DNA from: a virus
Strand: one strand, 5' to 3'
Virus record (IMG/VR): IMGVR_UViG_3300045988_125846
Coordinates: 64,001 to 128,000 of that record
DNA: 64,000 nt
Shown: positions 367 through 43,080 of the stretch, piece by piece
How the letters are laid out: the number at the start of each line of letters is the position of its first letter
How positions within the stretch are numbered: the stretch's first letter is position 1
Translations under genes and position numbers: made by a program
Notes under the pieces: generated by a model
The model's input: the letters and a program-made list of their open reading frames with translations, nothing else
What the model was told of the DNA's origin: nothing
The model's database searches: none

Positions 367-942
367 CTACTTGTATCTTCTTGTTAATTCGCTAACACTT
401 GAATCATTTGTTCCCTGACCGATAGCGTTAAATTTCCACTCTCCGTCTTTCTTATAAACTTCTGCAAATACCATTGCTGTCTTGCCAGCATAATCATCTG
501 AAAGATTGTATTTACAAATTTCCTTACCAGTTGACTCATCAACAAGTCTAATGTACGCATTCTTGATAAGTCCAAAATCCTGCTTTCTTGAAATACAATC
601 ATAGATATTTACTACAAATACAATCTTCTCAACCTTATTTGTAATATTCGCAAGATCAACGGTAATCTGCTCATCATCACCGTCTCCATCTCCTGTGAGG
701 TTGTCACCATGATGATACACACATCTGTCTTCCGCTGATCTGTCACCATAATAAACACATGTACGATACTTATCATCTTTTCCTAAAATAATTGCTGAAG
801 CATCGCAATCAATGTTTGGCTTAGAACCAAATAATCCTTTCTTAGCAGCATCCCATCCAAGTCCTACCATAATCTTTGTAAGACCACCTGCTACTTCCTT
901 AGATAAATTAATTTTCTGTCCTTTTACTAAATTTACTGACAT
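367..942 (-). CDS. terD: TerD-domain stress protein
   Basis: 191 aa with VNLVKGQKINL..GLGWD..DCDASAI..GDNLTGDGDGDDEQITVDL (acidic Ca-binding loop) and a GEWKFNAIG tail. GGAAGGAG RBS upstream. Confidence 0.85.
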   Translation of the reverse strand: MSVNLVKGQKINLSKEVAGGLTKIMVGLGWDAAKKGLFGSKPNIDCDASAIILGKDDKYRTCVYYGDRSAEDRCVYHHGDNLTGDGDGDDEQITVDLANITNKVEKIVFVVNIYDCISRKQDFGLIKNAYIRLVDESTGKEICKYNLSDDYAGKTAMVFAEVYKKDGEWKFNAIGQGTNDSSVSELTRRYK

Positions 943-960
943 ATATATTCTCCTTCCATT

Positions 961-1539
961 TTATAAATCAAGACCAAAATTTCTACCAATAGCAGCTAAA
1001 CCACCATTGTAACCTGAACCAACTGCATTAAACTTCCATTCACCGTTCTTACGATACAACTCACCTGCAATAACACCTGTCTCTAATGAGAAATCCTCAT
1101 TAAGTTCATATTTGAAAAGTTCCTCATTTGTATCAGCGTTGTATGCTCTAATGTACGAATTATCAACCATTCCGAAATTCTGTAAACGATTTTCTGCATC
1201 ATAAATTGTCGCTGAGAAGCTAATCTTTGTAATATTAGATGGAATCTTATTTAACTCAACAATCATTGTCTCGTCATCGCCATCACCTACACCTGTTCTA
1301 TTATCACCAGAATAAATCAATGCTCCGCTTGGATGCTGTGGCTGACCATAAAATACAAAATCCTGTTCGCCTGTTACCTTTCCTGAATCATCAGTAAAAA
1401 ATGCTGATACATCCAAATCGAAATCTGCATTACCATCGTATCTATTTGTATCCCATCCAAGACCAAATACGACTTTGTTTAAACCTGCATTGCCTTTTGT
1501 AAGGTCAATCTTCTGACCTTTAACTAAACTAATTGACAT
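961..1539 (-). CDS. terD: TerD-domain stress protein
   Basis: Start moved to MSISLVKGQKIDL (AGGAGG 8 nt upstream of the ATG at 1539). Contains GDNRTGVGDGDDETMIVEL and GEWKFNAVG motifs. Confidence 0.85.
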   Translation of the reverse strand: MSISLVKGQKIDLTKGNAGLNKVVFGLGWDTNRYDGNADFDLDVSAFFTDDSGKVTGEQDFVFYGQPQHPSGALIYSGDNRTGVGDGDDETMIVELNKIPSNITKISFSATIYDAENRLQNFGMVDNSYIRAYNADTNEELFKYELNEDFSLETGVIAGELYRKNGEWKFNAVGSGYNGGLAAIGRNFGLDL

Positions 1540-1732
1540 ATTGTTTGTCCTCCTTATTCTTGGGAAGGCTGTCAACCTTCCCTTTTAATAATTTAAAAGA
1601 AATTGGGAATGTGAGTAACGTCAGAAAAATAAATGGAATAAAGCGTGTAATACATGCTACAACAACACTAATTGAAAAACATATAAGAGTAATAATCTCT
1701 ACTTTTTTATAACTTTTATCTCTCCTTATCAT
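1529..1732 (-). CDS. small hydrophobic (membrane) protein
   Basis: 67 aa with two hydrophobic stretches (IITLICFSISVVVACI, FIPFIFLTLLTF). GGAG RBS. Sits between the ATPase and TerD genes. Confidence 0.5.
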   Translation of the reverse strand: MIRRDKSYKKVEIITLICFSISVVVACITRFIPFIFLTLLTFPISFKLLKGKVDSLPKNKEDKQYVN

Positions 1733-1748
1733 GTTCTCATCTCCTCAA

Positions 1749-4349
1749 TTACTTATTCTCTCTTTTCTTCTCAATAATCTTTCTAATAAGATCAATTGGA
1801 ATAACCATAAAGGCTAAAATTACAACTACTACCCAATGTTTGAAATCTAAAGCTGTGACCTTAATAAGATTTTCTGCAAAGTTGCAAAGAGCAAATGTCA
1901 TTGCAAAAATTCCGATTGCAATGGCTGAAAATAACTTATTCTTTCCAATGCCATTGAATAAATTAATATGCTCTGTACGAATATTAAATCCATTAAATAC
2001 TGCCATAAAGCATAACAATGCGAATCTCGCTGTCATAGCTTCTGTTTCAGATGCAAACATATTTGCAATTGGGCTAAATGTAATAATTCCATAGAGTACA
2101 ATAAATGCTACTGTACTAATCGCAATACGTTTCTTTGCTCCTCTAATGAATAAGCCAGAACCTTTCTTAATAGGTTTCTCTGTCATATACTCATCTTTTG
2201 GTGGTTCACCACCGAATGATAGTGAATTAAGGGAATCCATAATGATATTTACAATCAGAATCTGAACTGAAGCGAGTAATGCACCTGTTGCAATCATTGG
2301 ATAGATAACACTGAGAATCAGAAGTGAAATATTAATAGGTAACTGGAATTCAAGGAACATCATAATATTGTGCATAAATGTTCTTCCAAGTTCTACTGCC
2401 TTTACTACGCTTGCAAAATTATCATCTGTCAATACAATGTCTGAAGCTTCTTTTGCAACATCTGATCCACCTTGCATACCAAAACCAACATCAGCTCTCT
2501 TTAAAGCAGGACTATCATTTACTCCATCACCTGTCATTGCAACTGATTTTCCAATCTCTTGTGCTAATGTGACAAGTCTGAGTTTTGTGTTTGGTGAGCA
2601 TCTTGAAATAACTCTCAATCGAGGAATTATACTCTTTACTTCATCATCTGACATCGCTTCAAATTCATCATTTGTAAGTGCTAAATCTCCATCTTTGTAA
2701 ATTCCACACTCTGTAGCAACTGCAACTGCTGTCTCAATACAATCGCCTGTAATTTCAATAACTTGGATACCAGCCTTATGTGCTATTTTTACTGCACTCG
2801 GTACTTCATCTCTTACAGGATCTACAACACCGATAATTCCAAGGAATGTCATGTCATTTGGTATTTCATTCTCTACTAAATCACCATCTGCCATTGTAAC
2901 TGCAATACATCTCATCGCATTACTTGTCATCGCTGTAATTGCATTACTTAATGTATCATTGTCGTTATTCTCTACAATTTCACCACTTGAGTCCATTACT
3001 TTTGTACAATGCTCAATCAATTTCTCAGGTGCGCCCTTATAGTATGTAACTCCATCCTTTGTCGTAAAAGCTGAATACTTATTACTACTATTAAATACCT
3101 GCTTTAACTTAACTGGATATTTTTTCTGAATGTCAGCATGTGTTTCAGGATTTACAAGGCTAAGAACTGCTCTATCAATTGAATTACCACCTGTAATATT
3201 GTTTTCTGAATCAAATGTTGCACTATTATTTAAAGAAATGTTTGCCTCGATATTATTCCAAAGAACCGAATCCTTATTTACATCATTACCAAAGCCATCA
3301 ATAATCTTCTTTGGAGTCATAATACCTGTCGTAAGAGTACCTGTCTTATCAGTACAGATAATATCAACATATGCTAACTCTGGAATTTTACCAGGATTCT
3401 TAGCAAGAATATTGAATTTCTCCATTGTCTTTACATTCTGTTTTGTTACAAGTTTTACAATAAGAGGCAATCCTTCGGGAACAGCAGCTACAATAATTGT
3501 TAATGCTACTGAGAAGTTCTGTGCGATTTTCTGAATAATATTCAGAACGCCACCGCTAAAATATTCTCCAAATCCAACCTGTACAATTCCTGAAATTGTA
3601 AGCACCGCAAATGTAATAACGGCTGCGATTGTTCCCCACTTAGAAATGAAGTCGCTCAGATTATCAAGTGCAATATCAAGTGCTGTCTTTGGTGCTTCAA
3701 GTGTTTGCATTTTAACAAGCGTATCGCCATTTACTGTATTCACACCTACATCAGTAACAATCATTTTTCCTTCGCCTGACATTACTGTTGTGCCAGCAAA
3801 TAAGCAATTCTGATTCGTATAAGCATCTGTTGAAGTAGTTTTCTTATGAACGTATCCTTCAATTGGTGTTTTCTTACACTCTTTTGTTTCTCCATTAATA
3901 GCTGCATTGTTTACAGAAATCTTACCTTCAATGAGATATCCATCTGCAAAAATCTCTTGTCCCATTCCTACACAAACAAGATCACCAACTACCAATTCAT
4001 CCTTATTAATTGTTTGAACTTTGCCATCACGAATTACGTCACAATACCTGACTGATGTTTTGGCTCTCAACTCTGCTGCTGATTTTTGAACACCAAGTCC
4101 AGTCTTAACAGCAATACATGTTACAATTGCTAATACAACAAGAATCATAATTGGATCTGATAAATCCATTACTCCCATGACTCCAAGGAATAACTGCAAT
4201 ACTGCAATTGCAATAAGAATCATTGTGATTTTCTCACTTAATGCCTCCTTTGCGAAGTCATACCACTTGTCCAACTTTGGTTCAGGAAGCTTATTACTTC
4301 CATGAAGCTCTCTACTTTTGAGAACTTCTTTACTACTCAATCCATTCAT
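1749..4349 (-). CDS. P-type (P2, Ca2+-type) cation-transporting ATPase
   Basis: 866 aa with the ICTDKTGTLT phosphorylation site, the VPEGLP TM4 motif, the MTGDGVNDSPALKRADVGFGM hinge, a cation-ATPase N-terminus (LSSKEVLKSRELHGSNKLPEPK) and multiple TM helices. Confidence 0.9.
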   Translation of the reverse strand: MNGLSSKEVLKSRELHGSNKLPEPKLDKWYDFAKEALSEKITMILIAIAVLQLFLGVMGVMDLSDPIMILVVLAIVTCIAVKTGLGVQKSAAELRAKTSVRYCDVIRDGKVQTINKDELVVGDLVCVGMGQEIFADGYLIEGKISVNNAAINGETKECKKTPIEGYVHKKTTSTDAYTNQNCLFAGTTVMSGEGKMIVTDVGVNTVNGDTLVKMQTLEAPKTALDIALDNLSDFISKWGTIAAVITFAVLTISGIVQVGFGEYFSGGVLNIIQKIAQNFSVALTIIVAAVPEGLPLIVKLVTKQNVKTMEKFNILAKNPGKIPELAYVDIICTDKTGTLTTGIMTPKKIIDGFGNDVNKDSVLWNNIEANISLNNSATFDSENNITGGNSIDRAVLSLVNPETHADIQKKYPVKLKQVFNSSNKYSAFTTKDGVTYYKGAPEKLIEHCTKVMDSSGEIVENNDNDTLSNAITAMTSNAMRCIAVTMADGDLVENEIPNDMTFLGIIGVVDPVRDEVPSAVKIAHKAGIQVIEITGDCIETAVAVATECGIYKDGDLALTNDEFEAMSDDEVKSIIPRLRVISRCSPNTKLRLVTLAQEIGKSVAMTGDGVNDSPALKRADVGFGMQGGSDVAKEASDIVLTDDNFASVVKAVELGRTFMHNIMMFLEFQLPINISLLILSVIYPMIATGALLASVQILIVNIIMDSLNSLSFGGEPPKDEYMTEKPIKKGSGLFIRGAKKRIAISTVAFIVLYGIITFSPIANMFASETEAMTARFALLCFMAVFNGFNIRTEHINLFNGIGKNKLFSAIAIGIFAMTFALCNFAENLIKVTALDFKHWVVVVILAFMVIPIDLIRKIIEKKRENK

Positions 4350-4478
4350 CTGTTTTACTCTCCTTTTCTATAATTTTTATATATGAATGTTAATTAGTTA
4401 CATATCTATATTCTCTTTTTAATTTGGGAATTTTATTGAGCTGAATCGCTCAGAAATTTTTTACAATGAAACGAAGTT

Positions 4479-4979
4479 TTACTTTGATTTTTTATTTAAA
4501 ATTTTTATAGCTAACTCTTTTAATTCTTCTGTCAACCCATGCTTATATGTTGTTTTAATAAAGTGGTCAGTATTTAAAAACTCACACATATCTGAATCAT
4601 CATCTAATATAATAAAATTATCAACTGGATTCTTTGACAACCATTCTCTAATTTCATCCCCACGTTGAGTATCGCCACTCAAAGATGGAGTAATATCATA
4701 CACCTCTATATCATAATCAGATAATCTACTAATTAGTTTTGTGTACAATTTATTTCCAAAAATACTTTCTTTACCACTTCTATCACAACCAATTCGCCAA
4801 GAGGATGACACAACAATTTTTGCGTTTGTTTTGTCAATTATTTCTTTTAATAATTTTAGAGGTCTATCCTCCACTTCCGCATATAATATACATCCCGTAA
4901 TATTATTCTTTGCTCTATAAATCAGCAAGTCATCCTCAGAATTGAGTACACCATCTACATCTAAAAATATAACCTTCAT
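4479..4979 (-). CDS. small HAD-superfamily phosphatase
   Basis: 166 aa with FLDVDGVLN (DxD motif I), VVSSSWR and IILDDD motifs. Confidence 0.65.
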   Translation of the reverse strand: MKVIFLDVDGVLNSEDDLLIYRAKNNITGCILYAEVEDRPLKLLKEIIDKTNAKIVVSSSWRIGCDRSGKESIFGNKLYTKLISRLSDYDIEVYDITPSLSGDTQRGDEIREWLSKNPVDNFIILDDDSDMCEFLNTDHFIKTTYKHGLTEELKELAIKILNKKSK

Positions 4980-5016
4980 TCTTTCACCTCTCTTCCCAAG
5001 AAATCGAACTTTACTG

Positions 5017-5331
5017 TTATTTATCTACAACAACTATCTCTTTGCCACAATAAGGACAATATTTTAAATTTGCCATATTTTCAGGTATCCTCCAATATGG
5101 ATCATCAGCATCGTCATGTTCTTTCGGGCAAATCGTTCTATAATCGTATTTTATCCATTTACAAGTTTGTATTTCCTCGTATCTTCGGAGTACAACATTT
5201 CCTCCGTCAATAAATATTTCCATTGGCTCACCAATTGCGTCTGCTTTTCCAAACACCAGTCTTCTAATTTCCTTTGGAATTACTATTCTACCTAAGTCGT
5301 CAAATCTACGAATTGTTCCCATAATTTTCAT
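5017..5331 (-). CDS. AbrB/SpoVT-type DNA-binding protein with a C-terminal Cys motif
   Basis: RRFDDLGRIVIPKEIRR is the swapped-hairpin AbrB signature. The C-terminus carries CPKE..YCPYCGKE. Confidence 0.7.
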   Translation of the reverse strand: MKIMGTIRRFDDLGRIVIPKEIRRLVFGKADAIGEPMEIFIDGGNVVLRRYEEIQTCKWIKYDYRTICPKEHDDADDPYWRIPENMANLKYCPYCGKEIVVVDK

Positions 5332-5523
5332 CTTTCACCTCTCTTCTAAAGAAACGAACTTTATTTTGATATTTCTATTTTAATTTCTGTTCATTTACCA
5401 TTTTTAATAATGGAATAATCCAACTCAGAACGAGAAGAATGTCATTTGGATATTGATTCAGCCATAGAAATGAGATACTATATATGTATATCGACTTCTG
5501 GATTATTCCTAGTTGATATGCGA

Positions 5524-5562
5524 GATGGGCAACAGCAACTTCACGACATATCGTTGCCCATC
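5524..5562. other. perfect 10 bp stem hairpin (GATGGGCAAC/GTTGCCCATC)
   Basis: Read directly. The T-run (TTTT) lies on the plus-strand side only. The hairpin is just downstream of the minus-strand gene 5598-7805. Confidence 0.35.
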
Positions 5563-5597
5563 TTTTATGTAAAAGCTATTGCTTATTACCAAATTGA

Positions 5598-7805
5598 TTA
5601 CGCATTTGCTATAAAATTATCAAAGCTGCGTTTCATATATGTATAATTAACTTTCTGTGATGAACTAAAATCAGATTTATTTCTGTAATTCTCAATCCAT
5701 TTTTCAAAATCCTGATCCTTATCATTTTGACAAGCATATGCCATGAGTGCTACTAATGCCATTCCACACTCTTTATAAACTGGATCGTCAATCTTAACAC
5801 AATCTTCTACCATGTCTGTGTAAAGGTTTATATCTTCGTCTGTCACATTTGGATTTGCATTTTCTTGAACAAAGGAAAGAACACTTTCTTCCGTATTTTC
5901 TTCAGCACTTTCTTTCGTATTGTTATTCTCCAATTCTGTGTTATTTACTTCTCTTGTACCAATATGTAAAAATTCATTCATCAGTTTTATAAGTAAATCA
6001 ATTTTACCTGTAATAGTTGCCTTTTTCTTTGTCTGTTGGTCTTTAAAATCTGCCATAGATACACCATCAACTTCTTTATCTTTAAGTTCTGTATTATATG
6101 CTCTTAAGAAATCAATGAATCTTGAATCTTCAATATTATATGTAGTAAATTTATCAAATACTGCAATCCACATTGGCATTGTAGTTGGAGTAAGTAATGA
6201 CTTCAAGTCTTTATTGTCATCGCCTAATGCTAATTCCAATCTATTAAAATGTGAATTAAGTTTTAAGAACTGCTGTTCTGTTGCATTTTCATCAACATAT
6301 TTGTAAATTGTATCAAGTTTTGCTTTCCATGAATCACGGAAGAACATTAACATTATTGATTCTGCAACAACACGTTCCAACTTTCCCTTAATAACATTAT
6401 TATCTGTAAACTTCCCACAATTTTTAAAGAATGTGTTTTTCTGTGAAATATTTTTAATATATCCCGCTGTCTGTGCAGATACATTAAGAAAACCACCCTG
6501 TTCCTTATTCATACTCGCATGATTGTTATAATCACGAATATGATCTGCAATCTGCTCATCTGTACAATCAAAGAATTTTGTTACGTTTATATTGAAATTA
6601 TTGAATCGTTTCTTTAACTCATCAGGAAGATCTTTATAATATTTCCCTATAACATCAAATATTTTCATCTCATATTCTGGTAAGCCATCTTCATCAAGTA
6701 CACGATTTCCATTATCATCTAAGACATAATCTCTATACTGAATTAAATGTCTCTCTGCTCCTGCTGAACCAATCTTAATACGATTTTCCTTGAATGCCTC
6801 AGCATATGAAAGTCTCTGCAATCCGTCAATTAAATGAGAGATTGTCAATCCCTTTTTCTTCTGTTCACAAAGAATAATTTCTGGAATAGGAAGATTACTA
6901 AGAATACGACAAAAATATCTATTCGCTTCTTCTGTAGTCCACTGAAAAGGTTCACGTTGCAAGATGTAGTTGCAGTTCACGTCTCCATTTTTCTTATCCT
7001 GTAACAACGAATACATGCTATACTTGTCCGTCCTGTAATTTTCAGATTCGCTAATTTCAATAATTCTGTCTTCCATATTATTTACCTCCACATCATAATT
7101 CCCATCATTTTTATTCTTTGAAAATACTGAAAGTCCTTTATTTATCTTAATTGACTTCATAGCACTACTATATTCTCTGTCTGATATATTCAATTTTTGT
7201 TTTATATTATCAGCAGGAACATTCTCCATCCGCATCAGCAAAATATTTTTTTGTATCCTCGGCAAAGAATCAATAAAATTATCAACTTTTTCATCGGCAC
7301 TAAAATCGAACTCACTCTTGTCTTCTACGTTAAAGTCAGATGCAATTTTTTCTACTAAATCATTATCTTCTTCAGTAGGTGCATCAAATGAAGTATCTGG
7401 AATAATAACTGGTTTTCCTTTATCGTCATCTGTTACATTTCCATTTTTATCAACCTTTACTATCTTTCCATTTTTATCAGTTAATAGATTTTTTCTTTTA
7501 CATCTCTGATAGTTGTCTCTATACCAGTCAATAACAGATTTTTTAATATTATTAATAAGGTAAGTTTTAAAACTCGCACCTTGAGATGAATCAAAGTTGA
7601 TAACACTTTCCATCAGAACATTCATTGCATCATCGTACAATTCGTCATGTTCATGTGCTGGAATCCCATACCTGAAAAATGCATTGTAACTAATTTTCTT
7701 CAATTTTGACATATCATTTACACAGTATTCAGTAATCCATTCCAACTGTTGTGATGAAAGATTATTTAATTTTTCACGCAATATTTCGTCTTTCACTTCA
7801 TGCAC
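5598..7805 (-). CDS. sigma-70-like N-terminal module fused to a DUF262 (ParB/GmrSD-type) domain
   Basis: 735 aa with a GTG start. Region-2-like FKTYLINNIKKSVIDWYRD and region-4-like LPRIQKNILLMRMENVPADNIKQKLNISDREY. Further on, LQREPFQWTTEE....HLIDGLQRLS matches the DUF262 signature. Confidence 0.6.
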   Translation of the reverse strand: MHEVKDEILREKLNNLSSQQLEWITEYCVNDMSKLKKISYNAFFRYGIPAHEHDELYDDAMNVLMESVINFDSSQGASFKTYLINNIKKSVIDWYRDNYQRCKRKNLLTDKNGKIVKVDKNGNVTDDDKGKPVIIPDTSFDAPTEEDNDLVEKIASDFNVEDKSEFDFSADEKVDNFIDSLPRIQKNILLMRMENVPADNIKQKLNISDREYSSAMKSIKINKGLSVFSKNKNDGNYDVEVNNMEDRIIEISESENYRTDKYSMYSLLQDKKNGDVNCNYILQREPFQWTTEEANRYFCRILSNLPIPEIILCEQKKKGLTISHLIDGLQRLSYAEAFKENRIKIGSAGAERHLIQYRDYVLDDNGNRVLDEDGLPEYEMKIFDVIGKYYKDLPDELKKRFNNFNINVTKFFDCTDEQIADHIRDYNNHASMNKEQGGFLNVSAQTAGYIKNISQKNTFFKNCGKFTDNNVIKGKLERVVAESIMLMFFRDSWKAKLDTIYKYVDENATEQQFLKLNSHFNRLELALGDDNKDLKSLLTPTTMPMWIAVFDKFTTYNIEDSRFIDFLRAYNTELKDKEVDGVSMADFKDQQTKKKATITGKIDLLIKLMNEFLHIGTREVNNTELENNNTKESAEENTEESVLSFVQENANPNVTDEDINLYTDMVEDCVKIDDPVYKECGMALVALMAYACQNDKDQDFEKWIENYRNKSDFSSSQKVNYTYMKRSFDNFIANA

Positions 7806-7815: not shown

Positions 7816-7998
7816 TCATTTCCTTTTTCTGTCTAACTCTCTATACAAATATTCTCCAAAACTCAACTCATTATCATTGATTTTTATATGTCGTGTCTCT
7901 GAACAACATTTCGGACAACGACAGAATTTCTCATGCTTGTCCTTTGAGAACGACATAACTCCAATCATCGGAATATAACAATTTTTACAAATCACCAT
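7816..7998 (-). CDS. zinc-ribbon protein
   Basis: Start moved to MVICKNCY (AGGAAGGA RBS). Contains CxxC...CxxC (CKNC, CPKC). Confidence 0.55.
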   Translation of the reverse strand: MVICKNCYIPMIGVMSFSKDKHEKFCRCPKCCSETRHIKINDNELSFGEYLYRELDRKRK

Positions 7999-8011
7999 AT
8001 ATATCCTTCCT

Positions 8012-8629
8012 TTACAAATCAAACAGCTCGTTCATTACTCGTGGTTCATATGTACGCTTATCCATTTTCGACATGGATTCCAAAATCTCATTTGTAACTG
8101 TGTCAGAAATCTTTTTATCAAGAATAATGTTAAGAATTTGTATCTCATTTTTAATACTTCTTCTTTTTATTCTCCGTTCCTTTATCATCTTATATGCTTT
8201 CCATCCTTGTGCTGCATTAAGATTGCAAAATTCTATATAATGATTGATATCGGATAATTCCCTATCTACAAAGCTAAGTTCTTCACACAACTCTTCTTTT
8301 CTATGTAATGCATCTGTTGCTAATCCGTTAAGATCAGTTATTTTGTCAATCCATTTCTGGATATTTTCAGCAACCATAACTTTTTCAGTATTATTTTCCA
8401 CTTCTGATTGTGTAATCTGTTTTACATTATCGGGTGGGGTATCAATTTTCTGGATATGAAATACTGATTTCAAGGCTTTGGGTAGCGAGTTATTATATAG
8501 ATTATTGGCTGCTTTATTTGAAAATGTATCAGCCAATGCCTCGCAAGATGTTGGAACATATTTACCATTACGATTTCTCATAATCCAACGAGAACCGTCT
8601 GTAATTACATATTGTGCCAACGTAATCAT
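8012..8629 (-). CDS. hypothetical protein
   Basis: 205 aa ORF co-oriented in the array with a coiled-coil-like C-terminal half. No motif recognised. Confidence 0.6.
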   Translation of the reverse strand: MITLAQYVITDGSRWIMRNRNGKYVPTSCEALADTFSNKAANNLYNNSLPKALKSVFHIQKIDTPPDNVKQITQSEVENNTEKVMVAENIQKWIDKITDLNGLATDALHRKEELCEELSFVDRELSDINHYIEFCNLNAAQGWKAYKMIKERRIKRRSIKNEIQILNIILDKKISDTVTNEILESMSKMDKRTYEPRVMNELFDL

Positions 8630-8654
8630 CTCCTCTCTTTGTTTGATTTAGCAA

Positions 8655-8728
8655 TGGATCATCAGAGACTTGAACTCTGAGCCTTTCGGTTATGAGCCGA
8701 ATGCACTAACCAATTGTGCTAATGATCC
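8655..8728 (-). tRNA. tRNA-Met (CAT; elongator Met or Ile2-type)
   Basis: rc folds as GGATCAT-TA-GCAC/GTGC-TTCGG[CTCATAA]CCGAA-CAGAG[TTCAAGT]CTCTG-ATGATCC-A, a perfect cloverleaf. Confidence 0.9.
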
Positions 8729-8892
8729 AAGTCGCTGACACTATCGCAAGTTTATCAGGAAGTTCTATAGTATCAGCTTGTAATCCGTTAGTGGATCAGG
8801 CTATGGTAGAACTATAGCAACTACACATTTTGCTCTTACAATGATTAATTCTTGCGTTCTGCGATAGAACCCGGTCTGGAAGTATCGCATAG

Positions 8893-8964
8893 CAGGGCAT
8901 ATCAGATTCGAACTGACAAATTTCGCAGTCAAAGTGCGATGCCTTACCGCTTGGCGAATGCCCT
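8893..8964 (-). tRNA. tRNA-Gln (TTG)
   Basis: rc reads AGGGCAT-TCGCCAAGCGGTAAGGCA-TCGCA[CTTTGAC]TGCGA-..GTCAG[TTCGAAT]CTGAT-ATGCCCT-G. The D-arm is identical to the canonical bacterial tRNA-Gln. Confidence 0.9.
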
Positions 8965-9194: not shown

Positions 9195-9223
9195 ATAATA
9201 CTCCAAACATTTGTTCTTGTCAA
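9195..9223 (-). promoter_or_regulatory. sigma-A-type promoter (TTGACA-17-TATTAT) upstream of the tRNA-Gln/tRNA-Met pair
   Basis: rc of 9195-9223 reads TTGACAagaacaaatgtttggagTATTAT. Confidence 0.45.
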
Positions 9224-9295
9224 CGCATTTCCAGAACATTCGTTCGAGATTTGTTCGTTTAATATTTTTATTATATAATACTTCAAGTCCTATAA

Positions 9296-9547
9296 TCAGG
9301 ACACTATTTGGGGAAACTTAATATTATGCACAATAAATTCCTGCACTCCATCCAGCGAAAGCAACCCAAAAAAGTCATTATCTTGATAATTAATTGTGTT
9401 TGCCCTATTTATTATTCGCTTTCCTTCATCAACAGTTATCTGTCTTGGTCTTGTATGGATAAAAGTCATACCGTTGAAGGAATCAACCCATATTTTGCCA
9501 GGTGTTTCATCAATCATTTTTTTTGCTATTTCTTTATCTACATACAT
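9296..9547 (-). CDS. hypothetical protein (overlaps the stop of the MazF-like gene by 1 nt)
   Basis: 83 aa, translationally coupled (ATGA overlap) to the upstream toxin-like gene. Confidence 0.55.
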   Translation of the reverse strand: MYVDKEIAKKMIDETPGKIWVDSFNGMTFIHTRPRQITVDEGKRIINRANTINYQDNDFFGLLSLDGVQEFIVHNIKFPQIVS

Positions 9548-9927
9548 TATGCCATTACCTCCTCAAGCTTGTAGTCTGTTCCAAAAAATAAAGAATTAAA
9601 GCATACTTTATCTACCATTCTTTTATTTTTATCATCAGTAATAGTTCCAATTTTTGAGATCACTTCATCTTTTGAGATTGTTGTGATCTGCTCACCTAAC
9701 GCCATAGAATATAATGTTAATCCATTATTTTCATTTGCTTGAATACATCCATGACAAGGCATGTTTGTCTTTTTAATCTTACTTGTCAAAGGCATCACTG
9801 TTATAATCGGAGCATATTTCGTACCCAATGGATTACTTACTATTACATAAGGTCTTTCATTCGCTTGTACCGAATTTCCTTCATAATTGATTTTTGCCTT
9901 TATTATGTCGTATCTCTGTAAATCCAT
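9547..9927 (-). CDS. mazF: MazF/PemK-family endoribonuclease toxin homolog
   Basis: RYDIIKAKI..NERPYVIVSNPLGTKYAPIITVMPLTSKIKKTNMPCHGCI..ISKIGTITDDKNKRMVDKV aligns by eye along the whole length of B. subtilis EndoA. GGAGGAG RBS. Confidence 0.8.
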   Translation of the reverse strand: MDLQRYDIIKAKINYEGNSVQANERPYVIVSNPLGTKYAPIITVMPLTSKIKKTNMPCHGCIQANENNGLTLYSMALGEQITTISKDEVISKIGTITDDKNKRMVDKVCFNSLFFGTDYKLEEVMA

Positions 9928-10040: not shown

Positions 10041-10069
10041 TTGACATATAGTTTGCAACAACTTATAAT
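10041..10069 (+). promoter_or_regulatory. perfect consensus promoter (TTGACA-17-TATAAT) for the RHH gene
   Basis: TTGACAtatagtttgcaacaactTATAAT. Further CAACTT half-sites lie in and after the spacer. Confidence 0.6.
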
Positions 10070-10099: not shown

Positions 10100-10270
10100 A
10101 TGCCACAAGGAAAAATCAAAGATGAAAACACAAGGGTTATGGTGCTTCTTTCTAAAGATATAAAAGAAAAGGCAGCCAGAATTGCAACAGCAGATGGACG
10201 CTCGTTATCTGGTTGGATTCGTAACCTCGTAACAAATGAAGTTAATAAGTTTGACGACACTAAGAAATAG
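10100..10270 (+). CDS. ribbon-helix-helix (CopG/Arc-like) DNA-binding protein
   Basis: 56 aa ORF below the track cutoff: MPQGKIKDENTRVMVLLSKDIKEKAARIATADGRSLSGWIRNLVTNEV. AAAGGAG RBS. It is the only plus-strand gene in the left arm. Confidence 0.65.
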   Translation: MPQGKIKDENTRVMVLLSKDIKEKAARIATADGRSLSGWIRNLVTNEVNKFDDTKK

Positions 10271-10283: not shown

Positions 10284-10478
10284 TTACACAAACTTTACAA
10301 GATCAAATGGTTTAACTTCCATCACATTTGCTACAAGTTCTAATACTGCCAGATCTGGAACTGCACTTCCATTTTCCCATTTACTAATTGTACTTGGTGC
10401 AATATCAGCCATTTTCGCAAGTCCTCTTACTGTTATTCTTTTTTCGGTTCTGATTTTCTTTCCAATATATTCAACCAT
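10284..10478 (-). CDS. XRE-family helix-turn-helix regulator
   Basis: ITVRGLAKMADIAPSTISKWENG is an HTH_3 signature. Start set to the ATG with GGAG 8 nt upstream. Confidence 0.75.
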   Translation of the reverse strand: MVEYIGKKIRTEKRITVRGLAKMADIAPSTISKWENGSAVPDLAVLELVANVMEVKPFDLVKFV

Positions 10479-10480
10479 AA

Positions 10481-11461
10481 TCACATCTCCATCAATTTCT
10501 CTTTCATTCCCACTGCACCATTCGCATAGTTATTAACTGTTGTATTTACACTACTATGTCCAAGCTGTTGCTGCACGAATGCAAGATTTCCATTCTGATT
10601 CATTACACTGGCATAATAATGTCTCATCATATGTGGAGTAATACCATTTCCATAATTCTCAAATATCTGTTTGATATTTCTTTCTGTTGTACGTGTACCA
10701 TTTTTATTTACGAACACAGCTTCTTTGTCTACAATATTATTCAATGTATTTCTGTACTCTAGCCATTCTTTTATAGCTTTTAAAGCAGATCCGCTAAGAT
10801 ATACCGTTCTATTTTGCATTTCTCTGTACACACCTTTACCAAGAATAGTAATATATGGCATTTCTTCTTCTAAATGCAAATCAGATAAATCCAAGCCAGC
10901 AAGTTCAGACTCTCTTATTCCAGTCCCTCTTAAGACACGAAAAATAGCAATATTTCTATTTCTTACAGGAATATCCTTTTTCCACATTATCTTTTCTTCC
11001 ATATCATTAAGCTGTTTTTCTGTTGGAAGTTTTTTAGTTAAATTGTTTCCAGATGGAATTCCTTTATATGTTACATCTTTAAAGAATCCATCTTTAATTT
11101 CGGTTCCCTTCACTCTACTCATATAATCCCAAAAACTGCTTATAATATGTTTCCTGGTTTCCAATGTAGTTGGTGACATACCATTCTGTTCTTTAGTTTT
11201 CAAATATAATGTAATATCCTCTGCCATAATATCAGTAAAATCCGATGGCTCAATATCTGAAATATTTGTTTTATCAATAAGTTTCTCTTCAATAAACCAA
11301 TTGAGCAAATCTACAATAACTCCAAGATAATTCAATGCACCTGCTTTACTCTCTATTTTAACAGTGAAATATTTTCTCATATATATAGGAAGATTTAACT
11401 CATCTAACTTCCTATTGAGTTTTTCTGCGTTTTTATTTTGAACTTCAATTTTATAACACAT
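10481..11461 (-). CDS. tyrosine recombinase / integrase (XerC/D-like)
   Basis: N-terminal SAM-like core-binding region, RGTGIRESEL (catalytic R), HMMRHYYAS (H-x-x-R) and LGHSSVNTTVNNY (H..Y). Confidence 0.85.
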   Translation of the reverse strand: MCYKIEVQNKNAEKLNRKLDELNLPIYMRKYFTVKIESKAGALNYLGVIVDLLNWFIEEKLIDKTNISDIEPSDFTDIMAEDITLYLKTKEQNGMSPTTLETRKHIISSFWDYMSRVKGTEIKDGFFKDVTYKGIPSGNNLTKKLPTEKQLNDMEEKIMWKKDIPVRNRNIAIFRVLRGTGIRESELAGLDLSDLHLEEEMPYITILGKGVYREMQNRTVYLSGSALKAIKEWLEYRNTLNNIVDKEAVFVNKNGTRTTERNIKQIFENYGNGITPHMMRHYYASVMNQNGNLAFVQQQLGHSSVNTTVNNYANGAVGMKEKLMEM

Positions 11462-11466
11462 AATTA

Positions 11467-11748
11467 TCACTCCCTTGTGTAATCTGCTATCGCTTTTGCA
11501 ATAGCTTTAGCTGCTCTTTTACTTTTTAATGATTTCTGAATCGATTCTGTATTCCAAAAGACATCACTAAACTCAGCTAACTCACCACCGCAATTCCAAT
11601 TCGGAATACTAAAGAATCCTCCATTTACATATTCTCCGAAAATCACACTATAATAATTTCCATTATACTCAACACCTATATGGTGAATATTTTCAACATA
11701 AGTATCACCATTATAACTGATTTTATAATTTTCCATACTATATTCCAC
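11467..11748 (-). CDS. hypothetical protein
   Basis: 93 aa, co-oriented, abuts the integrase gene. Confidence 0.55.
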   Translation of the reverse strand: MEYSMENYKISYNGDTYVENIHHIGVEYNGNYYSVIFGEYVNGGFFSIPNWNCGGELAEFSDVFWNTESIQKSLKSKRAAKAIAKAIADYTRE

Positions 11749-31409: not shown

Positions 31410-31610
31410 GTATTATTTTTCAAAAAATACGATAAATTATAATACAAACATATGTTCTACTTGGATAATCCAGATCTGATTTTATAGAACGTTTGTTCTA
31501 TCCAAAAACAATGTATAATATATATCTATTATCCACTGTTTTTGCCTAACCCGGGGTAGTTAAAACTAATTAGATGGGCTGGAAATGTAGTAAACCTTAT
31601 AGCTGATTCA

Positions 31611-31830
31611 TCCACACACCAACTCAAAAATCTAACCCTTCCCAATATTCAAAATCCCAACAAAATCAAGCAAAATCCAAAATTTCACCCTTCAAACCAC
31701 TTATCGTACCCCATATCGTCAAATTCCACTAAAATCAAGCATTTCAGCCACTTCAACCCCAAAAAATTAAATTCCTATCTCACCAAAAATTCACCCATAA
31801 TTTCAAAATTATCCTTATTTATAAGCACTT
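31611..31830 (+). other. G-depleted, C/A-rich tract with phased A-runs
   Basis: By direct count only a handful of G occur in about 220 nt of the plus strand. Repeats AAAATCAAGCA (x2) and TTCACCC (x2). No ORF. Confidence 0.5.
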
Positions 31831-31946
31831 TTGCCGATAACGATTTTTCCATCAAAAGTCACACTCAAGAATCTCAACATATGGGGGTATTAAAACCTTC
31901 GCACAAATCACCTTTTAAATAGAGATATCCATATATAAAACAGCAA

Positions 31947-36459: not shown

Positions 36460-36924
36460 ATGGCTGGTACAGTTGAAAAAGAAACCAATTTTTATCTATA
36501 TAAGATTATAGATAAAGACGAATTAGTGTATATTGGGAAGTCAACTAATATTGATAATAGAATTGAAGTTCATAGCGTTATAAATAATCATTTTGATAAA
36601 AACATGTATTTTACATGTAGAGGAGAAAGTATATCAAATTTAGTTATTTATATTGCCAACGTTCCTGACGAGTATCTTTTGTCAATATATGAAATAACAT
36701 TAATTTCAAAATATAAACCACTATATAATAACAGCGACAAGTATGATACAAAACATCTATTAAAGTTACCACAAATAAATTGGTTTCCATATGTATCAAA
36801 AGAAAATTGTGAAGTAATTTATAACATGAAAACAGGCAAGATTATTGATCCTTGTTTAATAGATACACCATTAAAAAGATGGAATATTTTAAAAGATTTA
36901 CATATGGAGGAAATTAAATGTTAG
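36460..36924 (+). CDS. GIY-YIG nuclease-domain protein
   Basis: FYLYKIIDKDELVYIGKSTNIDNRIEVH carries GIY-x10-YIG and the conserved R. Confidence 0.6.
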   Translation: MAGTVEKETNFYLYKIIDKDELVYIGKSTNIDNRIEVHSVINNHFDKNMYFTCRGESISNLVIYIANVPDEYLLSIYEITLISKYKPLYNNSDKYDTKHLLKLPQINWFPYVSKENCEVIYNMKTGKIIDPCLIDTPLKRWNILKDLHMEEIKC

Positions 36925-39686
36925 ATACACAGATTAATATGTATTCGGTTGATACAGGTCATTTTTATAGCAATCATGAAAAATACTTACATCAAATGAA
37001 CTGTAAATACAGACGTGAAAGAAATTATGTAAATAATATGCTTCCAAAATTAGAAGAAGAACTCGTAACGCAGGGTTACAACAAAGATGATTTTTCTGAT
37101 TGGAAACGTTGTACCGTTGAAGACTACTATGAACAAGAAAATGATTCTGTAAAAGAATATATGAAGTGGTGTTTGATTATAAAACACAAAAGAGAGAAAG
37201 CAAATTTATCAAAAGAAAAACTTCTGAATCTTTTATCAAATAAGACAATTCAAAAAGAGAATCTATCGAATAAAATCGAGTATTGCAAATCGCATAATAT
37301 TCCATATAATAAAAAAATCGAATTAAGAGAGTTAAGAAAAGATGAACTAAATGATAATAATATCATTTCAGTATTTGAATCTTCCCTTACACGTATTATT
37401 GGCATTAAAAAAGACGAACTAACAGACGCTCTTATTGTAGTTCAAGTTTATTATTTTGATGTATTTAAAGATTTGTCTTTTTATGGGTTTATGTATAATG
37501 GCGAAAAATACAGATACTTTACATCTTCTGCTGGTCAAATCCGTAAGAAAAAAGCTGTTTTTATTAAAGAATCAGTATGGAATGAAGTTGAAAAGACAGT
37601 CATGTGTGGTCTTACTATTGATAAAATAAACTCAAAGGGTGGAAACAATGTTAATAAACATCTTGCGTATATGGCATTGGCGAATTCAGCTACTGACCAG
37701 TGGAATGATTTTGATATAGACAGATGTATTGTTGTAGATGATTTTGAGACGAATGTGCCAGGAGAATTTGATTTTATTGATGAGACTGATTATTCGATTG
37801 AGAGAAAAACTGGTACTGTTCCGATTACTCATACTGATGGAGCTGGCATGATATTACCAAGCGTAATGACGAAAAACACAATGTTTCGTGCTCCATGGGT
37901 GAAAGGTTTATTGGGAGTATTTGATTTTAAAAAGTTTATTGAAGTAAATAATTGCTCTCCTATTATCACAGATATTTATGGGCAAGATCATGATGTAATT
38001 GCTGAAGATATTAGAATAATTTTCACAAAAAGTCAATTTAAGATGTATAAGTTTTATGATTCATGGGATGAGTATAAGACATATTTTAAGCAATATCATT
38101 GTCAAGCTGGTAGATGTAACACTGAGGAAGATAGAATTAAAAATGCAAAAATCAATTATCAGATGTTGCAAACTCTCACAAATGTAACAGATGAAGAGAT
38201 TGATTTACTTACAAAGAAGTCTGTGGAGCGAATCACAAATATCTGTAACTCTGTTGATACTATGAAAGATATTCTTGGAATTACACCTTATAATACAAAT
38301 ATGACAGCTTTTCAAAAAGCAGTAAAGATTTATCCTGCTCTACTCAACGATACATATGCAAAAGACGTGATCCGTGAAGTAAAGAATAGCCTTTTAAAAA
38401 AATATAGAAGTGGAAAACTTGAAATAAATGGAAAATATACTTTCTTACTTCCAGATTATTATGCAGCTTGTGAGTATTGGTTTGGACACATTGATACGCC
38501 TAAAGGATTGTTGGCAGACAAAGAGGTATTTTGTTGGTTATTTAAACAATATGATAAACTTGACTGTCTAAGAAGTCCTCACCTCTACAAAGAACATGCT
38601 ATTCGTTTTAATGTAGCGAATAAAGTATATGAGGAACGAGTTGATAAAATCAGAGAATGGTTTACAACAAATGCGGTATATACAAGTACATATGACTTGA
38701 TTAGTAAAATTCTTCAGTTTGATGTTGATGGAGATAAATCATTGGTAGTTGCTGATCCTGATTTTGTAAGAATCGCAGAACGTAATATGAATGGTGTTGT
38801 ACCACTCTATTATAATATGCGTAAAGCAGAGCCAAGAATTTTGAATAATCAAAGTATTTATGAAGGATTAAATGCGGCATTTACAGGTGGAAACATCGGT
38901 GTTTATAGCAACAATATTTCAAAAATCTGGAATAATGATGTATTTATCAATGGAACAGATGAGGAAAAAGAACATGCAACTAATTGTGTCAAGCGTTTAT
39001 GCTGTCAGAATAATTTTGTTATTGATTACGCTAAGACATTATACAAGCCTGAGTTTCCAGAAACAATTGGTGAAGAAATTAAAGAGTTTACCAATCAGAA
39101 ACTTCCTGCATTCTTTGAATACGCTAAAGACAAGGAAAAATCACAAGTTGATGATAGAAATGATAGTTTTGTAAATAAACTCTACTATCGTATTCCTAAT
39201 AAATCAATTAATACAAGAGGTATGAAACTTGGAGAATTAAAATATAAGGATATGATGAAAAATCCTGATATTGTATGTTCTAAAGAGGTATCTGATTTGT
39301 ATGATGAATTGAACAAGAAGTACCGCTATATGGTCAATATGAAGGATGAATATATTGATAATCTTCATTATGTGGCTTGCTCTATTAGAAATCAATTTGC
39401 AGAGCTTGGATATTCGGAAGAAATGATTGCTGATATGCTCATTCAATATTTATATGGTGGGGAAAAACGTGCGAAACAATTGTTTTGGTTTTGTTATGGT
39501 CAGTATATTGTTACTAATTTAGAGAATAATCCAAATATCAAAAAGAAAAAGACTAAAATGATTCAATGTATTGATTGTGGTAAATGGATTGAAGTTGATT
39601 TTATGTCCAAGTCATGTAGATGTGAACTTTGTCAGCATGAATATCGAAAACAGCTTGATCGAGAAAGAAAAAGAAAAAACAAGTAA
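36918..39686 (+). CDS. candidate single-subunit two-barrel RNA polymerase (YonO/QDE-1-like)
   Basis: 922 aa. LRSPHLYKEH (nt 38571) lies 50 aa upstream of QFDVDGDKSLVV (DVDGD at nt 38721-38735), matching the RxPxxH...DxDGD catalytic-barrel pattern. C-terminal zinc ribbon CIDCGK..CRCELC. An HU-like gene follows. Confidence 0.55.
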   Translation: MLDTQINMYSVDTGHFYSNHEKYLHQMNCKYRRERNYVNNMLPKLEEELVTQGYNKDDFSDWKRCTVEDYYEQENDSVKEYMKWCLIIKHKREKANLSKEKLLNLLSNKTIQKENLSNKIEYCKSHNIPYNKKIELRELRKDELNDNNIISVFESSLTRIIGIKKDELTDALIVVQVYYFDVFKDLSFYGFMYNGEKYRYFTSSAGQIRKKKAVFIKESVWNEVEKTVMCGLTIDKINSKGGNNVNKHLAYMALANSATDQWNDFDIDRCIVVDDFETNVPGEFDFIDETDYSIERKTGTVPITHTDGAGMILPSVMTKNTMFRAPWVKGLLGVFDFKKFIEVNNCSPIITDIYGQDHDVIAEDIRIIFTKSQFKMYKFYDSWDEYKTYFKQYHCQAGRCNTEEDRIKNAKINYQMLQTLTNVTDEEIDLLTKKSVERITNICNSVDTMKDILGITPYNTNMTAFQKAVKIYPALLNDTYAKDVIREVKNSLLKKYRSGKLEINGKYTFLLPDYYAACEYWFGHIDTPKGLLADKEVFCWLFKQYDKLDCLRSPHLYKEHAIRFNVANKVYEERVDKIREWFTTNAVYTSTYDLISKILQFDVDGDKSLVVADPDFVRIAERNMNGVVPLYYNMRKAEPRILNNQSIYEGLNAAFTGGNIGVYSNNISKIWNNDVFINGTDEEKEHATNCVKRLCCQNNFVIDYAKTLYKPEFPETIGEEIKEFTNQKLPAFFEYAKDKEKSQVDDRNDSFVNKLYYRIPNKSINTRGMKLGELKYKDMMKNPDIVCSKEVSDLYDELNKKYRYMVNMKDEYIDNLHYVACSIRNQFAELGYSEEMIADMLIQYLYGGEKRAKQLFWFCYGQYIVTNLENNPNIKKKKTKMIQCIDCGKWIEVDFMSKSCRCELCQHEYRKQLDRERKRKNK

Positions 39687-40590: not shown

Positions 40591-40663
40591 TCTCTTATAG
40601 CTCAGTTGGTAGAGCATCGCACTGTTAATGCGAAAGTCGTAAGTTCGAGTCTTACTGGGAGAG
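40591..40663 (+). tRNA. tRNA-Asn (GTT)
   Basis: TCTCTTA-TA-GCTC/GAGC-TCGCA[CTGTTAA]TGCGA-AAGTC-GTAAG[TTCGAGT]CTTAC-TGGGAGA-G. Confidence 0.85.
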
Positions 40664-41497: not shown

Positions 41498-41498
41498 A

Positions 41499-41573
41499 GA
41501 GTGTGTAGCTCAGTTTGGCAGAGCACTCGACTTTTAATCGAGTTGTCGATGGGTTCAAATCCCTCCACGCTCA
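41499..41573 (+). tRNA. tRNA-Lys (TTT)
   Basis: GAGTGTG-TA-GCTC/GAGC-CTCGA[CTTTTAA]TCGAG-..GGG[TTCAAAT]CCC..-CACGCTC-A. Confidence 0.85.
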
Positions 41574-43057: not shown

Positions 43058-43080
43058 AATATTATGAAATTGGAGGCTAA

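Follow-up and report, generated by a model that had tools for sequence, protein, structure and literature searches.

A sigma-70-family factor joined to a ParB/DUF262-type domain and preceded by a LexA-type promoter in temperate phages of Lachnospiraceae

We analyzed a 64,000-nucleotide stretch of viral DNA (positions 64,001 to 128,000 of IMG/VR record IMGVR_UViG_3300045988_125846), hereafter called the window, whose minus strand carries a gene (5598..7805) that joins an N-terminal sigma-70-family module to a C-terminal DUF262 domain of the ParB/GmrSD type. The gene stands behind a promoter that carries LexA operators, and for that reason it is probably the switch that starts the lytic programme of the phage. 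In the reading that we favour, with slightly better than even confidence, the fusion is a phage sigma factor derepressed in the SOS response, which would redirect the host RNA polymerase (RNAP) to lytic promoters while its nucleoside triphosphate (NTP)-binding DUF262 module tethers or gates it. An earlier note on this DNA had recognized the two sigma regions, an acidic linker and a DUF262 domain devoid of a nuclease, and had named a phage sigma factor among several options; these parts of it stand, and neither its nuclease idea nor membership of a defence system was supported.

The gene is a single uninterrupted open reading frame (ORF) of 735 amino acids if it starts at GTG 7805, or of 732 if it starts at GTG 7796, the form found in databases. 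Its product has more than 900 homologues; hundreds of these, from gut assemblies made independently of one another, are 96-100% identical, and the contigs that carry them reach 0.9 Mb. When representatives at 50% identity were searched exhaustively, 707 matches were returned, 225 of them at E <= 1e-30, and full-length fusions (680-780 aa) reach down to approximately 26% identity. When 127 loci from viral contigs and bacterial genomes were compared, the gene was fused in 111, spanning 25-100% identity, and split in 12, where a sigma ORF of 176-223 aa is directly followed by a DUF262 ORF of 379-502 aa. The junction of the 11 viral split loci, which belong to at least four separate lineages, consists of a stop codon, 17-24 nt with AGGAGG or AAGGAAG, and an ATG. 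Shorter variants (570-650 aa), from which the C-terminal domain is missing, were found at about 26 loci, mainly in bacterial genomes.

As judged from gene arrangement, this 'Rosetta stone' pattern of fused and split forms shows that the sigma and DUF262 modules work together. It also bears on an artefact that the earlier note had raised against itself, namely that separate sigma and DUF262 genes had been merged in the window by a frameshift of sequencing or assembly. Some lineages do have separate adjacent genes, and the window gene contains an internal Shine-Dalgarno (SD) sequence followed by an ATG; the ORF is nevertheless continuous in the 111 fused loci and in hundreds of independent assemblies, so that the artefact is refuted for the window and keeps practically no probability. 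Conservation in an alignment of 32 diverse fusion homologues (A1) runs along the whole length, from sigma region 2 to the C-terminal W703, with a mean pairwise identity that is highest in the DUF262 domain (40%) and amounts to 30% in the sigma domains and 13% in the linkers. In databases, family members are labelled merely 'sigma-70 family' or 'DUF262 domain-containing'. A single deposited phage record holds the fused gene (MT835469.1, an unannotated human-faecal contig), Megablast found nothing among INPHARED phages that matches the 8.6-kb neighbourhood, and no sigma gene stands beside the distant DUF262-only homologues (21% identity) of PJN02, FADO and other Bacillus phages.

The N-terminal module is, by sequence comparison, a genuine sigma-70-family factor with regions 2, 3.2 and 4, since its family profile matches sigma factors of known structure and its region 3.2 can be aligned with theirs. 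Indeed, a profile of the N-terminal 230 aa, in which the free-standing sigmas of split loci were included, matched 68 PDB sequences at E <= 0.01, nearly all of them sigma factors (best 4e-8). SigA, FliA, SigH and WhiG were matched in region 2, and the alignments extended into region 4 and to helix-turn-helix (HTH) domains of the LuxR/NarL type. When the family profile was compared with the PDB, the conserved VSLDAP segment (SFDAP in the window protein, aa 139-143, within 'SFDAP...D..EKIASDF') aligned with 'ISLETPIGKEEDSRLGDFIESD' of SigA region 3.2. A search of the PDB with the full-length protein sequence gave marginal sigma matches only. The region-3.2-like segment and the best PDB matches, SigA, FliA and SigH, make the module look more like a group-3 sigma factor than one of extracytoplasmic function (ECF) origin.

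Region 2 forms a helical domain (aa 1-104; 7494..7805, minus strand) identified by Pfam, Foldseek and the PDB profile matches. Pfam Sigma70_r2 covers aa 43-98 with 28.3 bits, above the gathering cutoff of 24 bits, and was detected in 21 of the 32 family members; the region-2-like segment of the earlier note (aa 79-101) falls within this match. Region 4 is a four-helix HTH domain (aa 172-230; 7116..7292, minus strand) supported by NCBIfam TIGR02937 (sigma70-ECF; aa 43-218, 41.5 bits versus a cutoff of 42.9), by region-4-type matches and by conserved residues. Sigma70_r4_2 matches the window protein weakly at aa 173-210 (E 0.085), and both this match and that of TIGR02937 take in the HTH that had been noticed earlier at aa 181-212. 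Region-4 families were matched in 11/32 members (r4_2 in 6, GerE in 4, r4 in 1), Pfam Sigma70_ECF in 2/32, and PHROG 351, 'RNA polymerase sigma factor', matched the window protein at 5e-12. Near-invariant residues of A1 include F79 and R104 in region 2. In region 4, L181 is invariant in A1, L205 is invariant in alignment A3, I201 is near-invariant in both, and I188 is conserved in A1; D141 is near-invariant in the family.

Structure prediction had been suggested in the earlier note. With A1 as input, AlphaFold2 (AF2) modelled the full protein at a mean predicted local distance difference test (pLDDT) score of 81.8, with distinct sigma2, sigma4, DUF262 and helical domains, and Foldseek matched the sigma part to PDB entries of SigB, SigH and SigE-N (8b3z, TM 0.76). 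Between the two sigma domains (aa 105-171; 7293..7493, minus strand), AF2 and the family profile place a beta-hairpin insert with strands at aa 105-135, the region-3.2-like segment and an acidic disordered linker (pLDDT <50 at aa 147-170), which corresponds to the linker described previously. A second disordered linker (aa 232-253) leads to the DUF262 domain.

The DUF262 alpha/beta domain of the ParB/GmrSD_N type (aa 255-432; 6510..7043, minus strand) was delimited by its GmrSD_N and NsnA matches, its invariant residues and Foldseek. It displays the motifs QRxxxxW (283-289), DGxQR (327-331) and YN..PMN (426-432). In A1, QR..W, DGxQR and N427 are invariant or nearly so and M432 is conserved; G328 of the DGxQR loop is invariant, and D327, Q330 and R331 occur in at least 90% of members. 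The DUF262 hallmark recognized earlier, LQREPFQW and IDGLQR, thus represents motifs I and II, both invariant or nearly so among the 32 homologues. GmrSD_N matches the window protein at aa 281-422 (23.7-28.7 bits versus a cutoff of 33.2) and was found at E <= 0.01 in 21/32 and 29/35 family members (best E 3e-13), while the PADLOC NsnA profile matches aa 238-419 at 5e-11, covering the DUF262 part only (profile positions 23-175 of 385).

The remainder of the protein, beyond DUF262, appears helical. The AF2 model, in which the C-terminal 300 aa are entirely helical, comprises a helical domain directly after DUF262 (aa 433-616; 5958..6509, minus strand; pLDDT ~90), which also has BFVD matches, a disordered linker (aa 618-639) and an optional five-helix C-terminal domain (aa 641-735; 5601..5885, minus strand). 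In this last domain W703 is the sole invariant residue, no His or Asp is conserved, and neither a family nor a fold match was obtained, Foldseek leaving the domain unassigned with both models. A separate model of the C-terminal 481 aa, built with 34 stand-alone homologues, gave a pLDDT of 89.8 and a predicted TM (pTM) score of 0.71. An NCBIfam SigG match at aa 635-711 was weak and unreproduced by any other method, and was treated as due to chance.

No HNH, DUF1524 or other nuclease family was recognized in the 67 members scanned from both alignments, in line with what had been remarked for the window protein alone. Because of this and of the helical nature of all that follows DUF262, the fusion protein is not a GmrSD enzyme, and the idea that a GmrSD-type nuclease/NTPase is targeted to RNAP was dropped. 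The best PDB fold match of the DUF262 part is nonetheless BrxU of the GmrSD family (E 1.5e-3, probability 0.89), with SspE matched as well, and ParB bound to CDP or CTP(gS), as well as Noc, were matched at probabilities of 0.4-0.7 (E 0.1-1); the E-values are weak because of the domain arrangement. Against viral models, the fold search recovered a fused homologue at E 9e-39 together with many nuclease-less GmrSD_N proteins, the two-domain BFVD matches to the latter having target-normalised TM values of 0.56-0.64. A profile of the DUF262 and C-terminal parts found no significant match in the PDB. The helical domain at aa 433-616 has no sequence match to the ParBDB, a DNA-binding domain defined in the work on Menshen (PMC12065111), and would be the positional equivalent of ParBDB and of the GmrSD-M and SspE-M DNA-binding domains.

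The DUF262 half of the protein is probably also made on its own. An SD sequence (GGAGG, 7085-7089, minus strand), an 8-nt spacer and an ATG at codon 244 (7074-7076) predict a free DUF262 protein of 492 aa, and this ATG coincides with the point at which the DUF262 proteins of the split loci begin. Of the 53 fused lineages left after dereplication, 48 have such an in-frame SD and ATG in the 33 codons that precede the DUF262 domain, compared to 9.8% of the other 33-codon windows of the same ORFs (binomial P = 5e-43), and the protein sequence of the linker around it is barely conserved. Since the signal is kept in 48/53 lineages, a free DUF262 protein is probably encoded in nearly all of them and co-produced with the fusion. 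The sigma factor is free in the split form and tethered in the fused form. T7 gp4A/4B provide a precedent for a full-length product accompanied by a nested shorter one, and by this analogy, together with the dimerization of ParB, GmrSD and BrxU, mixed oligomers of the full-length and free forms are plausible.

The promoter of the operon lies 1.4 kb upstream of the fusion gene, on the same minus strand. It is of the sigmaA type (9195..9223), with TTGACA (9218-9223), a 17-nt spacer and TATTAT (9195-9200), and matches the consensus at 11/12 positions. A perfect LexA (SOS/Cheo) operator, GAACGAATGTTC (9234..9245), stands beside the -35 element, and a second one, GAACAAATGTTT (9205..9216), lies within the spacer. 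LexA operators have been described as GAACN4GTTC in Bacillus (SPbeta review) and as GAACnnnnGTT(C/T) in clostridia (PMC4234289), and operator 2 has the same sequence as the core of the recA operator in C. difficile (PMC4234289). On the 3' side of the promoter follow tRNA-Gln, tRNA-Met, two small genes called c1 and c8, and the fusion gene.

This arrangement recurs in the family. Divergent intergenic regions, read toward the fusion gene, contain TTGACA-17-TATAAT promoters whose spacer holds GAACnnnnGTTC, the Firmicute LexA operator, and the operator consensus derived across loci is TAGAACATATGTTCTA. Over 125 loci (2.45 Mb) we counted 99 perfect GAACN4GTTC boxes, 84 of them between -2300 and +80 of the fusion start, a region that makes up 11.5% of the sequence. 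After dereplication at 80% identity to 57 lineages, a perfect upstream box was present in 35, versus 0/52, 3/61 and 0/57 in three control regions of equal size (3/170; Fisher P = 1e-22); if one mismatch is allowed, the figure rises to 51/57. Paired operators (box, 7-12 nt, TTGACA, box in the spacer, TATAAT) occur in 24/57 lineages. Taken together, these sites suggest that the operon would be repressed by LexA and induced by DNA damage. An SOS-like box inside the fusion ORF (6267-6278) is coding and kept only among close relatives, and was set aside.

A second SOS operator pair is found elsewhere in the window, on the plus strand (31446-31498), where AAACATATGTTC (one mismatch) and a perfect GAACGTTTGTTC lie in an intergenic region of 529 nt. 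It is followed at 31580-31870 by some 300 nt that are G-poor, C/A-rich and without an ORF; it may represent either a further early promoter or a non-coding RNA under LexA control.

The element itself is a phage. Besides a terminase, a portal and a PIN-PhoH protein, the window has genes for ten tRNAs, for two tyrosine-recombinase-like proteins and for a YonO-like single-subunit RNAP of 922 aa (36918..39686, plus strand; DVDGD motif, Pfam RdRP, PHROG 8308), whose sequence identity amounts to 44% with SPbeta YonO and to 49.5% with a protein of Clostridium phage D-1873. YonO is the single-subunit RNAP that transcribes the late genes of SPbeta (SPbeta review; Forrest et al.). IMG/VR contigs with relatives of the fusion are mostly 90-200 kb long. 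A single-sequence scan of bacterial genome contigs found none, and an alignment-based rescan found prophage copies, in Lachnospiraceae genomes of Lachnospira (66% identity), Lacrimispora, Coprococcus, Blautia, Roseburia, Hungatella and Butyrivibrio, some of them complete chromosomes. Lacrimispora sp. HJ-01, Hungatella hathewayi WAL-18680 and Lachnospiraceae bacterium 28-4 are examples of lysogens that can be cultivated. As the window carries a YonO-like RNAP, we assign the element to the temperate SPbeta-like phages of Lachnospiraceae.

At approximately 30 loci of bacterial genomes the fusion gene and the YonO-like gene are divergent neighbours, usually 250-1400 bp apart. The YonO-like genes linked in this way are up to 80% identical to the window copy, retain DxDGD motifs and are followed by structural genes. 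SPbeta-type Bacillus phages, whose YonO is 44% identical, have no homologue of the fusion gene. Many of the bacterial-genome loci (L099, L104, L110, L112, L096 and L089) also show a small conserved ORF before the YonO-like gene, with the motif ...(F/Y)GG.IY.SDF......RI..D.RFDE.C.....

Candidate target promoters were sought in the window and across loci. In the 45 intergenic regions of the window, k-mer and gapped-dyad searches recovered only ribosome-binding sites (RBS) and sigmaA-like -10 elements over a shuffled null, and a two-block promoter of the form 'AATAAATAG-N11-GAGAAT', which had two supporting sites only, was dropped. Applied to 20 lineages, on that side of the divergent regions which faces YonO, a Gibbs sampler returned AAAnAGAGAAWTATA, with an information content of 13.2 bits versus <= 11.0 in shuffled sequences. 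In the window, AGAGAAT-type sites are found on the plus strand at 33339 (before the first rightward gene), 35765, 36412 (48 nt ahead of the ORF that precedes the YonO-like gene), 40220 and 50453 (170 nt ahead of the packaging operon), and on the minus strand at 22568. This element could be the promoter of the fusion sigma or of the YonO-like RNAP, and we regard it as a lead only. An A-tract followed by AGAGAAT(A/T)TATA recurs ahead of operon starts, also at loci L104, L105, L110, L113, L121 and L123.

These observations can be assembled into a model in which, in the lysogen, host LexA bound to one or two operators overlapping the sigmaA promoter would hold the operon off. DNA damage would remove LexA, and the sigma-DUF262 protein would then be made, together with free DUF262 from the internal start. 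The sigma module is expected to bind host core RNAP and to redirect it to lytic promoters of the phage, a regulon that probably includes the operon of the YonO-type RNAP, which would in turn transcribe the late genes. The DUF262 module would probably dimerize with the free form and act as an NTP-dependent DNA-binding partner that tethers or licenses the sigma factor. The phage-sigma option of the earlier note fits well with a phage element that carries an intact sigma module behind an SOS-type promoter, near a phage RNAP and late genes.

Several points speak against this model. The GmrSD_N and TIGR02937 scores of the window protein lie slightly below curated cutoffs, and the PDB fold matches of the DUF262 part are weak. 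A perfect SOS box is missing in 22 of 57 lineages (only 6 at one mismatch), and the binding of LexA and of RNAP, like induction in the SOS response, is deduced rather than observed. No clear sigma-specific two-block promoter was recognized in the window; the AGAGAAT element, rich in A and overlapping in part with RBS-like sequence, exceeds its null modestly and might just as well be a YonO promoter. Lastly, the predicted structures do not separate a tether from an autoinhibitor role of the DUF262 module.

An alternative idea is that DUF262 is a cognate regulator akin to an anti-sigma factor, which would keep the sigma inactive until an NTP, DNA or DNA-state signal (damage or modification) arrives, its free form titrating or buffering the sigma; we hold this tentatively and, on balance, find it unlikely. 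ECF sigmas with a fused regulatory extension at the C-terminus, or gene pairs of sigma and anti-sigma, would be its parallels. The split form shows the classic order of sigma followed by regulator, C-terminal extensions are the second commonest mode of regulation of ECF sigmas (PMC7826278), a free DUF262 protein is nearly always encoded, and DUF262 domains serve as sensors in GmrSD, SspE and Menshen (PMC12065111). A buffering inhibitor might, moreover, help against leaky LexA control. The module nevertheless has no similarity to known anti-sigma domains, and the extensions known from ECF sigmas are SnoaL, TPR or Cys-rich rather than ParB-like; the high conservation of the NTP motifs suits a sensor and a tether alike and does not discriminate. 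Slightly more doubtful is a further possibility, in which either a DUF262 dimer formed with the free protein is loaded on phage DNA as an NTP-gated clamp that delivers the attached sigma to lytic promoters, so that the factor tethers itself and unites in one polypeptide what T4 does with the gp45 clamp and the gp55 sigma, or the fusion serves as the long-sought initiation factor that lends YonO-type RNAP its promoter specificity.

In its narrower form, the latter idea makes the fusion the missing promoter-specificity factor of the YonO-type RNAP and not a partner of host RNAP, which we find very improbable. Both genes are present in the window and are tightly linked, as divergent neighbours, in the ~30 loci mentioned above, and a contiguous T7-promoter-like AGAGAATATATA element stands ahead of YonO and late operons, with candidate sites at 33339, 36412, 40220 and 50453 of the window. 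Forrest et al., moreover, leave it open whether YonO depends on host or phage factors to recognize promoters. The linkage may, however, simply mirror a regulatory cascade, and SPbeta-type Bacillus phages have YonO without a homologue of the fusion. Sigma regions 2, 3.2 and 4, which contact the beta-prime clamp helices, the active-site cleft and RNA-exit channel, and the beta flap of multisubunit RNAP, suit a partner of that kind. YonO, for its part, is devoid of several elements of multisubunit RNAPs, the beta flap included (Forrest et al.). A role in prophage defence or superinfection exclusion, in which DUF262 would sense foreign (e.g. modified) DNA and activate the sigma for protective or suicidal genes, much as the RpoE-like sigma of type III-E CRISPR, is improbable too, if a little less so. 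It can draw on the PADLOC NsnA match, on a weak match to the CAS_III-E sigma model, on the nearby PemK/MazF-like toxin and variable downstream cargo with TerD and RNA-repair genes, and on the sensor function of DUF262 domains in several defence systems. Against it, no NsnB or NsnC gene, DUF1524 partner or other effector partner stands beside the fusion, and no ABC-ATPase was seen in any locus examined; since neither NsnB nor NsnC is nearby, the locus is not a Menshen system. The gene is syntenic and near-universal in a deep phage clade (30-100% identity), a core gene rather than patchy cargo; the earlier note had said only that DUF262 is found in several defence systems. LexA-type control ties it to the phage's own induction, ~30 loci place it beside the phage RNAP and late genes, and the downstream cargo is not conserved along with it.

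The favoured reading, a phage sigma redirecting host RNAP, has precedents in the sigma factors that mobile elements use for lytic or late genes, such as PBSX Xpf, SPO1 gp28 and T4 gp55. These, like the clostridial TcdR/UviA group, are small divergent sigma-70 factors that take over host core RNAP; unlike the fusion, none is known to have a ParB/DUF262 module or a nested second product, and the fusion differs further in the LexA operators of its own promoter and in the presence of a YonO-type RNAP in the same phage. In T4 late transcription the sliding clamp gp45 is tethered to the sigma gp55 through gp33. The concept of a DNA-loaded, NTP-dependent clamp that delivers a phage sigma would be the same, and may offer a functional analogy for the proposed tether, although gp45 is a PCNA-like clamp that needs a clamp loader and has no homology to the ParB-like domain. 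KorB, VirB and Noc are ParB-family NTP-dependent DNA clamps that regulate transcription. DndB, a DUF262-type relative with the DGxxR motif (DGQHR), controls the transcription of dnd operons in a sequence-specific manner (PMC4507180). In these four proteins the NTP-binding domain of the ParB superfamily serves DNA binding and transcription control, not cleavage, and they provide the closest working analogy for the C-terminal module; they are, however, stand-alone repressors, anti-silencers or partition proteins, none covalently linked to a sigma, and the fusion locus has no dnd or par context.

Among sigma factors with regulatory extensions, ECF41, ECF42, ECF56 and ECF238 likewise combine a sigma2-sigma4 core with an in-cis domain, and have relatives whose regulator is a separate adjacent gene (PMC7826278, PMC8999054). 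Known ECF extensions are SnoaL-like, TPR, Cys-rich, DUF1835 or transmembrane, none being ParB-like or DUF262, and the fusion has a region-3.2-like segment; phage sigmas stand explicitly outside the ECF classification (PMC7826278, PMC8999054). The type IV enzymes GmrSD, BrxU and SspE, of which BrxU is the best PDB fold match, share the N-terminal DUF262 with QR..W and DGxQR and a helical middle domain, whereas in the fusion DUF262 is joined to a sigma, with no DUF1524/HNH and no evidence of restriction. Menshen NsnA (PMC12065111), the best match in the defence library, appears to share the layout of DUF262 and helical domain, and the size. According to the Menshen survey, some NsnA proteins carry additional N-terminal DNA-binding sensor domains, and the only sigma parts among these are region-1.1-like (PMC12065111); the fusion has a complete sigma (r2-r3.2-r4) in place of region 1.1, no NsnB ABC-ATPase or NsnC, and a phage regulatory locus.

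No description of a sigma factor joined to ParB/DUF262 was found in the literature on DUF262/ParB-like domains and sigmas, the ECF reclassification, the Menshen survey or the SPbeta review; the architecture, which the earlier note had called unusual, is for this reason considered uncommon and appears undescribed. Phage sigmas, ECF sigmas with extensions and ParB/DUF262 NTP switches have each been well studied singly, and it is their combination in one protein of which no description was found. The family is abundant: human-gut assemblies contain hundreds of nearly identical copies, and its prophages are spread over genera of the Lachnospiraceae. If it is indeed an SOS-triggered master switch, it would offer a simple model for the induction, for instance by DNA-damaging drugs, of a major class of large gut prophages, and it bears on the open SPbeta question of what directs the expression of YonO-type RNAP and the recognition of its promoters. 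NTP-gated DNA binding by the ParB superfamily would then extend to transcription initiation, and a self-tethering sigma or a YonO-type initiation factor would represent a new principle that couples the sensing of DNA state to promoter selection. The nested start and the natural split and fused variants are ready-made genetic controls.

In phages of the window type, the module upstream of the fusion gene comprises, in order, a tyrosine-recombinase-like gene, a divergent small HTH or ribbon-helix-helix (RHH) gene, a PemK/MazF-like gene, a small ORF, c1, c8 and the fusion. The c1 protein (8012..8629, minus strand; 205 aa, PHROG 32601) has a coiled-coil-like C-terminal half and adjoins the fusion in 69 of 81 loci (80 viral loci and the window). 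The c8 protein (7816..8022, minus strand; 68 aa), encoded immediately upstream of the fusion, is a CxxC...CxxC zinc-ribbon protein that belongs to clusters c8 (34 loci) and c17 (17 loci). Both genes are co-transcribed, just upstream of the fusion, in window-type phages and missing where the SOS promoter abuts the fusion gene, and they may be accessory regulators. The tRNA-Gln (8892-8964) and tRNA-Met (8654-8729) genes (8654..8964, minus strand) lie between the SOS promoter and c1 and, owing to this position, would be SOS-induced along with the sigma operon. The ten tRNA genes of the window are located at 8654-8964 (minus) and 40591-49974 (plus).

Downstream of the fusion, the window carries (367-5331, minus strand) an AbrB/MazE-like plus zinc-ribbon protein, a HAD_SAK_2 phosphatase of the RNA-repair type, two proteins of the TerD family and a P-type cation ATPase. 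In relatives their place is taken by RlaP, a CCA-adding enzyme, Tpt1, PspA or a TnpB-like gene, and the position looks like a cargo hotspot. On the upstream side, the PemK/MazF-like toxin gene (9547-9927, minus), which has an overlapping 83-aa ORF downstream, adjoins the fusion operon in 59/81 loci. Two divergent sigmaA promoters with 12/12 matches (10013-9985, minus; 10041-10069, plus) were recognized next to it, facing a 56-aa RHH-like gene (10100-10270, plus).

The tyrosine-recombinase-like genes of the window lie at 10284-11470 (minus) and 46459-47493 (plus). The former, which shares its transcript with the gene of a 66-aa HTH_3 protein, is a conserved neighbour on the upstream side of the fusion module; it presumably recalls the integrase-like master repressor of SPbeta (MrpR/YopR). 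A separate ParB-like protein (PHROG 1033) is encoded at 26691-27629 (minus), and some close relatives (L001, L002 and L006, at 5125-5643) have an additional 172-aa GmrSD_N-only gene upstream; from these two genes, modules of the ParB superfamily are seen to recur in this phage group.

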